A stretch of 13,944 nucleotides of DNA, taken from the UHGV virus genome UHGV-1652516, one strand, 5' to 3'. Below, piece by piece: positions 12,220 through 13,944 of the stretch (the first letter of the stretch is position 1; the number at the start of each line of letters is the position of its first letter). The notes beneath the pieces were generated by a model. That model was not told where the DNA came from. It made no database searches and worked only from the letters and a program-made list of their open reading frames with translations. The position numbers and the translations under genes are program-made. The DNA is from a virus.

Positions 12220-13869
12220 ATGAATGACGTTACAGTTGTTACATCGGTTACTTACCCATCACCCGAGTCGTTGGCTCTGGTGGCTGATGTGCAATACCAC
12301 GAACCATATCTGTCAGCCGCTCTAAACCGAAAATTCAGGGGAATTGTTGACCCAGGATTTTATGCTGGTTTCTTGCCTAAGCCTGGCGGTGGAATGAACC
12401 TGTTAATCACCTCAGTGGATGGAGATAAAACCGCTGGCGCGGCGTCAGTGGATATTGGTGAATTCTACCAGGTAACTATTCAGCATCGTAAGGATATCTC
12501 TCTTGCACTTAACGCAGGCAAGAAATATGCAATTGTGCTGAAGGGAAGATACCTTCTTGGAGAAGATACCTATCAGGTGAATACCGCGTCACATATTCAT
12601 GCAGCTGAATTTGTTGCCAGAACCTATACCGATTCATATCAGTTAGGTGATGGGGAACTGCTGGTTTGTACGGTGAATATCCCTGCTGGCGTATCTACCA
12701 TTACTCAAGAGATGATTGATACATCCGAGCGTATCAACCGCACGATCGGCATTGATATTTCAGACTCTGTAACCAGTACCAGAAGTGATGTTGCTGCGAG
12801 TTCGCTGGCAGTTAAAAAAGCCTACGATCTGGCGAAAAGCAAGTATACGGCGCAGGATGCAAGCACAACGCAAAAGGGATTAGTTCAGCTCAGTAGTGCC
12901 ACTAACAGTACGTCCGAAGTGCTGGCCGCCACACCGAAAGCTGTCAAGGCTGCATATGACCTGGCTAACGGGAAGTATACAGCCCAGGATGCAACCACGA
13001 CACAAAAAGGGATAGTTCAGCTCAGTAGCGACACCAACAGCACTTCTGAAACATTAGCTGCAACTCCAAAAGCGGTTAAAGCTGCATACGATCTAGCAGC
13101 CGGAAAGGCACCATCCAGTCATACACATCCCTGGAATCAGATCACTGGTGTGCCAACAGCTTCATTGACAGCGAAAGGCATCACTCAGCTCAGTAGTGCC
13201 ACTAACAGCACGTCTGAAGTGCTGGCCGCCACACCGAAAGCTGTCAAGGCTGCATATGATTTGGCTAATGGAAAGCAAGCGGCAGACGCTACGCTCACTG
13301 CTCTAGCGGCACTAGCTACAGCAGCAGATAAACTCCCTTATTTCACAGGTGTTGATCGTGCCGCGTTAACTGCATTGACAAGTGTTGGACGCGCCATTCT
13401 TGGTAAGACCAGTATTCAGAGCGTTCTTGATTACCTTGGTTTAGGGGAAGGCTCGGCGCTGCCCGTTGGTGTACCTGTTCCATGGCCCTCCGCCACACCA
13501 CCAACGGGGTGGCTGAAATGTAACGGAGCAGCATTTTCTTCTGAAAAGTACCCAAATCTGGCAAAGGTTTACCCCACTAATAAATTGCCGGATCTACGGG
13601 GCGAATTTATTCGAGGTTGGGATGATGGACGAGGTGTGGACAATGGGCGAGCATTATTAAGCAGCCAAGAGGCTACAAACTTTTCTCAGCGTGCCGGAAA
13701 TATAGGCGATGGTGCAGGGCACGCAATTAATTTTCATGATGGCATCGTCGGAAATCAGCCAGGATTTTCACGATTTAATTTCACCAGTAACTCTGTAGGT
13801 GATGGTATAAATTTTGTTGCTGTCAGGCCGCGAAATATCGCATTTAATTACATCGTAAGGGCGGCATAA
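12220..13869 (+). CDS. Side tail fibre protein, 549 aa (lambda Stf / P2 H-like), with tail-fibre repeats and collar-type C-terminal receptor-binding domain
   Basis: Start placed at ATG 12220 (MNDVTVV...), with AAGGA 10 nt upstream and just after the upstream stop; the track's 12133 start would overlap the preceding gene. Three copies of TQKG(I/L)VQLSS(A/D)TNSTSE(V/T)LAATPKAVKAAYDLA, the classical fibre repeat of lambda Stf and P2 H. C-terminal PTGWLKCNGAAFSSEKYPNLAKVYPTNKLPDLRGEFIRG fits the phage tail collar domain pattern, and the terminal NIAFNYIVRAA matches the lambda Stf ending NIAFNYIVRLA. Confidence 0.9.
   Translation: MNDVTVVTSVTYPSPESLALVADVQYHEPYLSAALNRKFRGIVDPGFYAGFLPKPGGGMNLLITSVDGDKTAGAASVDIGEFYQVTIQHRKDISLALNAGKKYAIVLKGRYLLGEDTYQVNTASHIHAAEFVARTYTDSYQLGDGELLVCTVNIPAGVSTITQEMIDTSERINRTIGIDISDSVTSTRSDVAASSLAVKKAYDLAKSKYTAQDASTTQKGLVQLSSATNSTSEVLAATPKAVKAAYDLANGKYTAQDATTTQKGIVQLSSDTNSTSETLAATPKAVKAAYDLAAGKAPSSHTHPWNQITGVPTASLTAKGITQLSSATNSTSEVLAATPKAVKAAYDLANGKQAADATLTALAALATAADKLPYFTGVDRAALTALTSVGRAILGKTSIQSVLDYLGLGEGSALPVGVPVPWPSATPPTGWLKCNGAAFSSEKYPNLAKVYPTNKLPDLRGEFIRGWDDGRGVDNGRALLSSQEATNFSQRAGNIGDGAGHAINFHDGIVGNQPGFSRFNFTSNSVGDGINFVAVRPRNIAFNYIVRAA
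12871..13275 (+). repeat. Tandem in-frame tail-fibre repeats (three units of about 44 codons) inside the fibre gene
   Basis: Units 1 and 3 are exactly 300 bp apart and about 92 percent identical at nucleotide level, including a 44-bp identical run (12919..12962 vs 13219..13262). Unit 2 (about 13001..13107) encodes the same peptide with many synonymous differences. Confidence 0.85.
13436..13505 (+). repeat. Copy 1 of a 70-bp perfect direct repeat, inside the fibre gene at the start of its C-terminal domain
   Basis: 13436..13505 is identical over all 70 bp to 13875..13944; it encodes LGLGEGSALPVGVPVPWPSATPPT in the fibre frame. Confidence 0.9.
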
Positions 13870-13874
13870 AAACG

Positions 13875-13944
13875 TTGGTTTAGGGGAAGGCTCGGCGCTG
13901 CCCGTTGGTGTACCTGTTCCATGGCCCTCCGCCACACCACCAAC
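13875..13944 (+). repeat. Copy 2 of the 70-bp direct repeat, beginning 6 bp after the fibre stop and running off the window; start of a startless second C-terminal cassette
   Basis: Identical to 13436..13505 up to the last base of the window. In the frame that reproduces the same peptide, the nearest upstream stop is TAA 13856..13858 and the intervening codons (GGG CGG CAT AAA AAC GTT) contain no start codon. Confidence 0.85.

Follow-up and report, generated by a model that had tools for sequence, protein, structure and literature searches.

A 70-bp direct repeat behind the tail fibre gene of viral genome UHGV-1652516 very probably marks two crossover sites of a Min-type multiple DNA inversion region

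The stretch of viral DNA analyzed here (UHGV virus genome UHGV-1652516; 13,944 nucleotides, called the window throughout) very probably ends inside a Min-type multiple DNA inversion region of a p15B/P1-like phage-plasmid, judging from its own sequence and that of its relatives. As part of this reading, and with the same high confidence, the 70-bp direct repeat at its end is taken to consist of two neighbouring crossover sites of the same orientation, both in the '+' arm of the array, together with the conserved first codons of the cassettes that follow them. The identification as Min is made because of the anatomy of the sites, the cassettes and invertase of related loci, collinearity with p15B, and a permutation of cassettes of the type produced by inversion. 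The remainder of the system (the invertase, the inverted sites, and the tail fibre assembly gene tfa) lies outside the window and was read from relatives that are 98–99.7% identical across this region. The Min system is already known and its mechanism was worked out for p15B in 1990–92; the finding is an ordinary one and raises no new question.

A megablast search with positions 11700–13944 placed this part of the window in the R-S tail fibre operon of P1/P7-like phage-plasmids. Identity to P1 is 96–97% across R and the first part of the constant fibre region Sc (over the first 1.2 kb), and the window is 96–99% identical to R-S regions of the P1 family, with hundreds of E. coli, Klebsiella, and Salmonella plasmids matching its R-S region. 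The genes upstream match the P1 tail module: tube, a Sit-like SLT protein, the baseplate protein BplA, gp16, and R. Gene R itself (11774..12208, + strand, 144 aa; in the list of open reading frames) was annotated as a tail fibre structure/assembly protein from its 96–97% megablast matches to 'R' of P1/P7 and from the Pfam family PF26881 (Phage_P1_tail_fiber_R), which was found on the identical gene in L013, a related 96-kb scaffold that also encodes an identical fibre protein. As in P1 and p15B, R stands directly upstream of S.

The tail fibre gene S (12220..13869, + strand) encodes a 549-aa protein with Phage_fiber_2 repeats and a Collar domain in Pfam. Its start is most likely the ATG at 12220, not the TTG of the mechanically called open reading frame. 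The gene is composed of the constant part Sc (12220–13435) and an expressed variable cassette, T0 (13436..13869, + strand), of 144 aa, which contains the Collar domain and ends in RPRNIAFNYIVRAA before the stop codon. Within Sc there is a family of 132-nt repeated elements (12820..13251, + strand; repeat family D1) that coincide with four stretches matching Phage_fiber_2, and equivalents are annotated in P1 as 'repeated element a0/a1'. The copy number of these elements varies among relatives, the window having one unit more than L003 and L004 (gap at 13092–13174). The identical 549-aa fibre protein was called on nine public contigs, all of them 98.0–99.2% identical to the window at the DNA level over the aligned parts, so that none is its exact source; a 55-mer specific to the window likewise had no exact match among the viral and genome contigs searched. 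Record CP142560.1 matches at the window coordinates plus 30000 but has an indel within the Sc repeats and ∼2% substitutions relative to the window.

Reading of the sequence and a repeat finder both confirmed that positions 13436–13505 are repeated exactly, over 70 nt, at 13875–13944, as the sequence-only reading had described. An exact repeat of this length within 14 kb cannot have arisen by chance. The match reaches 73 nt, from 13433 and 13872, if one mismatch is allowed (C/G at 13435/13874). Copy 2 starts 6 nt past the last base of the fibre stop codon (TAA, 13867–13869) and runs to the final base of the window, so that 70 nt is the length visible in the window and not the full length of the repeat in the molecule. 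The perfect match is 85 nt long in the relative L003 and 46 nt in the relative L004, and it lies within a region of ∼200 nt that is 85–93% conserved among cassettes. The Collar domain begins at about nt 13468, 32 nt into the repeat, and the two copies indeed bracket the C-terminal domain of the fibre. Their spacing is 439 nt (3×146+1), and copy 2 encodes the same peptide, GLGEGSALPVGVPVPWPSATPP, in the +1 frame, in which a stop lies five codons upstream (*GRHKN) and no ATG, GTG, or TTG stands ahead of the repeat. The proposal that copy 2 opens a second, startless cassette was therefore upheld. What the window holds of this silent cassette, which has the same orientation as T0, is its first 70 nt (13875..13944, + strand); cut by the window edge, it is too short to type. 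A promoter and terminator scan of 11600–13944 gave no sign of a transcription unit of its own for the second cassette, with 0 promoter-like sites; the two terminator-like sites in the same interval were on the minus strand and at background level. Elsewhere in the window, an inverted repeat (I1, 1039–1059 and 5628–5648, 86%) was taken as a chance occurrence.

The position at which the perfect repeat begins coincides with the centre of a recombination site. Site 1 (13424..13449, + strand) is a predicted mix/cix-type crossover site of 12+2+12 bp, TTCTTGATTACC-TT-GGTTTAGGGGAA, with its TT core at 13436–13437, at the junction of Sc with the variable part Sv. Site 2 (13863..13888, + strand), in the same orientation, reads GGCATAAAAACG-TT-GGTTTAGGGGAA, with its core at 13875–13876 and the fibre stop codon included in its left half-site. 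In the curated P1 record, cixR in the direction of S is TTATCCAATACC-TT-GGTTTAAGAGAA and the crossover is annotated between the two T's; site 1 is identical to it at 20 of 26 positions and the crossover points coincide. The first T of the core is also the first base of the repeat; one base earlier, the copies differ (C versus G). Both sites have the features of Cin/cix-type sites, namely 26 bp, imperfect inverted half-sites of 12 bp, a 2-bp core, and cores identical between partners. They are the only two crossover sites in the window, both on the + strand, and the 14-nt core motif TTGGTTTAGGGGAA likewise occurs twice, on the + strand both times, where 0.11 occurrences were expected.

This site anatomy recurs throughout the related loci. 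The junction at site 1 is the same in all relatives compared, and in 11 related loci each cassette, on either strand, begins with AAAACG-TT-GGTTT(A/G)GGGGAAGG, the TT core being present in all sites. Ahead of every silent cassette in these 11 loci stands the junction GGCATAAAAACG-TTGGTTT. What forms the left half-site is accordingly the cassette ahead, through its conserved 3′ end and stop codon, or, for the last cassette, fixed DNA beside the invertase gene. Left half-sites are poorly symmetric, matching the right half at 5–6 of 12 positions; because of this weak symmetry, the internal sites are best regarded as predicted sites, not every one of which is proven active. The point of exchange can be read from T0 in its other contexts. 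Matches to T0 start at window positions 13433–13436 (query positions 134–137), and in L002 the cassette adjacent to Sc, T12, differs at 10 of the 70 repeat positions while the silent, inverted T0 has no mismatches. The first 70 nt thus travel with the cassette and not with Sc, and because homology breaks at the core, exchange appears to take place there and is not scattered through the conserved region.

Relatives that continue past the window edge provide the rest of the system. Across 13300–13944, L003 and L004 are 99.7% identical to the window and L002 is 99.1% identical. These three and L013 continue with 6–9 startless Collar-domain cassettes on both strands and one tfa gene (Caudo_TAP) each; related arrays overall hold 6–11 cassettes and sites, typically 8–9, on both strands. 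The cassette at the position of the second copy is complete in the related loci (144–169 aa; cassettes overall measure 144–170 aa), and every cassette in the 11 loci lacks a start codon of its own. In records passing the edge, tfa, the inverted cassettes, and a Cin-like serine invertase follow 2–5 kb further on. The invertase (190 aa, Resolvase and HTH_7 domains in Pfam) shares 74% identity with P1 Cin along its entire length, and its sequence is exactly that of UniProt Q05517_ECOLX, 'DNA-invertase'; holin/lyd/dar genes come after it. In the 5′ part of its gene, a 71-nt segment is 83% identical to the annotated enhancer of P1 and is a predicted enhancer. From these records we infer that the molecule to which the window belongs would carry the remaining array and an active Min invertase.

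Collinearity with p15B was judged indirectly, from the X62121 values given in the curated P1 record and from a published comparison. According to the P1 record, P1 and p15B (X62121) are 83% identical in the enhancer segment, 89% with one gap in a cin-like remnant, 84% and 99% in further segments, and 96% across R-Sc. Comparison of P1 with L003 and L013 gives the same identities (83%, 89% with one gap, 84%, 99%, and 96%), and the spacings of the segments in L003 and L013, 684, 1020, and 1265 bp, equal the p15B coordinates, including the pseudo-invertase remnant. The plasmid p15B of E. coli 15T-, studied by Sandmeier, Iida, Arber and co-workers in 1990–1992, is reported to have a Min system with six crossover sites and 240 isomers. 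Zhou et al. (PMC5786510) described a 5-kb putative invertible segment on pMCR_SCKP-LL83, which is our L004, and reported that it matches the p15B min region with 92% coverage and 99% identity. Three further papers (PMC5903667, PMC11850598, PMC4987407) describe Min as a cluster of overlapping invertible segments, with reference to Sandmeier et al. (1990, 1991, 1992).

The order and orientation of cassettes among isolates obeys the rules of inversion. Cassettes were typed by protein identity, and the comparison is one between isolates, made on assembled records. The shared repertoire comprises T0, T3, T5, T7, T8, T10, T11, T12, T13 and a few more, with about nine types permuted between plasmids. 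All '+' cassettes stand ahead of all '-' cassettes (>...> <...<) in 11 typed loci, in L013, and in contig-truncated arrays. The tfa gene occupies the single point of convergence, flanked by T3 and T10 in all 10 loci that hold both; L001 has T3 at the convergence point and no T10. In each of the nine arrays long enough to include the boundary on the invertase side, the final cassette is '-'. One set of nine cassettes, permuted differently in each, is common to L003, L004, and L007; a breadth-first search that allowed inversions between '+' and '-' sites only converted L003 to L004 in two steps and L003 to L007 in six. With nine cassettes, the inversion model reached 80,640 arrangements and any cassette could reach the Sc position; with six cassettes, inversion alone gave 240, the number reported for p15B. 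Because the region is repetitive, misassembly could in principle account for some of the permutations; L001, for one, is full of frameshifts.

The cassette expressed from Sc also differs between isolates. T0 is the cassette joined to Sc in the window and in L003, L004, L007, L008, L009, and L013–L020; in L002 its place is taken by T12, and in L011 by T10 with tfa directly after it. A 99.4% identical T0 lies silent and inverted beside the invertase gene in L002, and T0 is silent in L010, L011, and L012 as well. Behind the identical 549-aa fibre, the next cassette is T7, T8, T3, T12, or T11, depending on the isolate. Because five different cassettes occupy this position behind the same fibre, site 2 would itself be a point of exchange.

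Taken together with what is known of related recombinases, these features suggest the following mechanism. S consists of the constant Sc and, attached to it at a 26-bp crossover site, one 3′ cassette out of several that have neither promoter nor start codon; every cassette contains a Collar domain and would encode a different receptor-binding tip. A site lies at the 5′ end of every cassette, and the cassette before it contributes the left half through its own 3′ end (stop codon plus AAAACG). In the relatives, one arm of the array ('+') extends from Sc and the other ('-') leads back from the invertase side; the two converge on the single tfa. A Din-family serine invertase, Min, a homologue of Cin, Gin, Hin, and Pin encoded just past the array, would exchange DNA at the TT cores of inverted sites. 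Inversion between the Sc site and any '-' site would fuse the corresponding cassette to Sc, and inversion between an internal '+' site and a '-' site would reshuffle silent cassettes. A silent cassette in direct orientation, such as the one at the window edge, would be expressible through two successive inversions, the number that the model requires. Din-family invertases such as Hin, Gin, and Cin bind as one dimer per 26-bp site, with synapsis taking place at a Fis-bound enhancer on supercoiled DNA (the invertasome). Cleavage leaves a 2-bp stagger at the core and is followed by 180-degree subunit rotation and religation, in a geometry that favours inverted sites.

The sequence-only reading had recognized a host-range switch in which the repeat bounds an exchangeable C-terminal receptor-binding cassette, and the arrays of the relatives support this much of it. 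The mechanism it proposed was a programmed deletion, set apart from the invertase-driven switches of Mu, P1, and e14, in which recombination between the direct copies removes 439 bp and is the main route of tip change. The arithmetic is right, since a deletion of 439 bp (3n+1) would fuse the second cassette to Sc in frame, and the direct sites are real. However, the repeat starts at a cix/mix-type core, and every relative that extends far enough has an invertase, inverted cassettes, and permutations consistent with inversion. Nor could one-way deletion yield identical nine-cassette repertoires kept in different orders. Din-family invertases act through the enhancer/Fis invertasome, and an enhancer-like segment is present in the invertase gene. 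Moreover, where many sites coexist, inversion systems favour inverted over same-oriented sites (PMC11850598). Extending the sequence downstream, which had been suggested as a check and was carried out here on relatives, revealed full alternative cassettes, together with the tfa and invertase genes that the window lacks. The deletional, invertase-free, and tfa-free interpretation arose because the window is truncated. As the main route of tip change, deletion is highly improbable. It may be a rare side reaction: the number of cassettes among relatives ranges from 6 to 11 and matching places per record from 4 to 14, suggesting that cassettes have been lost and gained in the course of evolution. 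Loss could plausibly come about by deletion between direct sites or between the conserved 5′ regions of 200 bp. In expanded arrays with up to seven direct cassettes, deletion by Min or RecA might even form an irreversible second route that fuses Sc to the next cassette and prunes the repertoire. This is a doubtful extension; if true, it would explain why related plasmids hold between 6 and 11 cassettes. A linked point concerns the single tfa, which always lies behind T10 and is antisense to S in most T0-expressing isolates: it would then serve only one of the approximately nine tips, and the other Collar-type tips would fold without a co-transcribed chaperone.

The remaining alternatives concern the junction between the fibre stop codon and the second cassette. 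A contig end mis-extended into a collapsed repeat would make the second copy an assembly artefact. The window does end inside the repeat, as do L019 and L020, two short-read metagenome contigs that encode the same fibre and terminate 84 nt after site 2, indicating that assemblers break here; the window end is probably just such a break. The succession of T0 3′ end, 5 nt, and next cassette nevertheless recurs in many complete circular plasmids from independent laboratories and in the 96-kb scaffold, which makes an artefact very hard to credit; the junction is real. The sequence-only reading also raised, as a less likely alternative, +1 frameshifting by the ribosome shortly ahead of the fibre stop, which would give a fibre carrying two tips in tandem. 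The +1 frame is indeed that of the second cassette, and a run of A residues lies beside the stop codon in GCA-TAA-AAA-CG, the sequence of the junction. Conservation of this junction is, however, explained by its being a left half-site, and the same junction occurs on both strands and next to non-coding DNA. Since the cassette after the identical fibre varies by isolate, there is no fixed tandem product, and no known signal or stimulatory structure was identified at the junction. The idea found no support, and its probability is close to negligible. An array of Min-type inversion sites thus remains by far the preferred interpretation of the repeat.

If the Min-type reading is correct, P1/p15B-like phage-plasmids, frequent carriers of mcr-1 or ESBL genes, would possess a shufflon-like library of receptor-binding tips. 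From a single prophage, DNA arrangements could number in the tens of thousands and host-range variants about nine. There are also consequences for annotation. Startless 'phage tail protein' fragments after S would be functional silent cassettes and not pseudogenes, short-read assemblies would be expected to break in the conserved 5′ region of the cassettes, and any deposited arrangement would be one snapshot of a mixed population.

Among known systems, Min of p15B is the closest. Like the window and its relatives, it has a P1-type R-S operon with a repeat-rich Sc fused at a crossover site to a startless 3′ cassette, and like the relatives it has sites in both orientations, an adjacent Din-family invertase, and a pseudo-invertase remnant and lydA at the X62121 spacings. 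It differs in having, reportedly, six crossover sites, whereas the relatives have 6–11 cassettes. The Cin/cix C-segment of P1/P7 shares the operon and Sc (96–97% nucleotide identity over the first 1.2 kb), a homologous invertase, the site (20/26), and the enhancer (83%). However, P1 has two sites only, cixL and cixR, bounding one invertible segment of 4.2 kb, with two long Sv alternatives that each have their own assembly gene (U or U′), and cin points towards the segment. In the relatives described here, by contrast, the cassettes are numerous, short, and of Collar type, tfa occurs once, sites are found in both direct and inverted orientation, and the invertase gene points away from the array. 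Gin/G of Mu, Pin/P of e14, and Hin/H of Salmonella likewise employ a serine invertase with Resolvase and HTH_7 domains and a 26-bp site built around ACC-NN-GGTTT, and the switches of Mu and e14 alter the tail fibre C-terminus, as here. All three are two-site, two-state switches, in contrast to the multi-site shuffling proposed for Min. The R64 shufflon (Rci/sfx, pilV) resembles the present system in combining a constant 5′ part with many startless 3′ cassettes and many sites in both orientations, and in favouring inversion over deletion. Its recombinase, Rci, is an unrelated tyrosine recombinase acting on other sites, and the gene that it diversifies encodes an adhesin of a conjugative pilus, not a phage fibre.

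The window ends at nucleotide 13944, 70 nt into the second cassette (the silent direct cassette that starts at 13875), and two short-read metagenome contigs carrying the same fibre (L019 and L020) end 84 nt into it. All three sequences stop early in this cassette, which suggests that the repeat broke the contig at the window edge and that the cut is not arbitrary. The cassette map of the related record L012 (NZ_CP063505.1) contains the tip cassette T7 in two copies, one in each arm of the array, which implies either a duplication or a mixed population that was mis-assembled. Almost all of the 11 cassettes of L001 (NZ_CP139843.1) are frameshifted, probably owing to long-read errors. 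Arrangements of the cassette region in deposited records should be read as snapshots or consensus artefacts.

The copy number of the 132-nt Phage_fiber_2 repeats in Sc, the constant 5' part of the tail fibre gene S (repeats at window 12820-13251), was found to vary widely among otherwise near-identical plasmids, so that the fibre shaft differs in length between them; unequal recombination is the presumed cause. The window has one repeat unit more than L003 and L004 (pMCR_SCKP-LL83). The S gene measures 1482 nt in L004, 1617 nt in L001, 1683 nt in L002 and 2037 nt in L006, reaching 2382, 2550 and 2850 nt in L007, L009 and L008, respectively.

Further upstream, the plus-strand gene at window 9426-10859 encodes a 477-aa product that is designated a bleomycin hydrolase by PGAP in most relatives. 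Synteny with P1 BplA and precomputed Gp6-like and baseplate J hits identify it as a baseplate protein, which makes the PGAP designation a propagated misannotation. An inverted repeat of 21 nt (86%) was also observed within coding regions at 1039-1059 and 5628-5648, 4.6 kb apart; it is probably a chance occurrence.

A truncated second invertase gene fragment adjoins the far side of the invertase gene, in the opposite orientation, in L003 (15835-16096, minus strand) and the 96-kb scaffold L013 (16442-16703, minus strand). The fragment, which includes an enhancer-like segment, shares 89-90% identity with the promoter and 5' region of P1 cin. Its position is that given in the P1 record for p15B nt 7147-7408, the psi-min remnant.

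The tail fibre assembly gene, tfa, lies on the minus strand in L002 (11717-12328), L003 (12085-12696), L004 (13516-14127) and L013 (13637-14248), and on the plus strand in L009 (11512-12123). It is antisense to the S operon in most isolates expressing T0, the tip fused to Sc in the window. Where tfa could be placed, cassette T10 immediately precedes it and T3 is convergent with it; L001 has T3 and lacks T10. Whereas P1 has one U gene for each alternative, the related loci have a single tfa for 6-9 cassettes.
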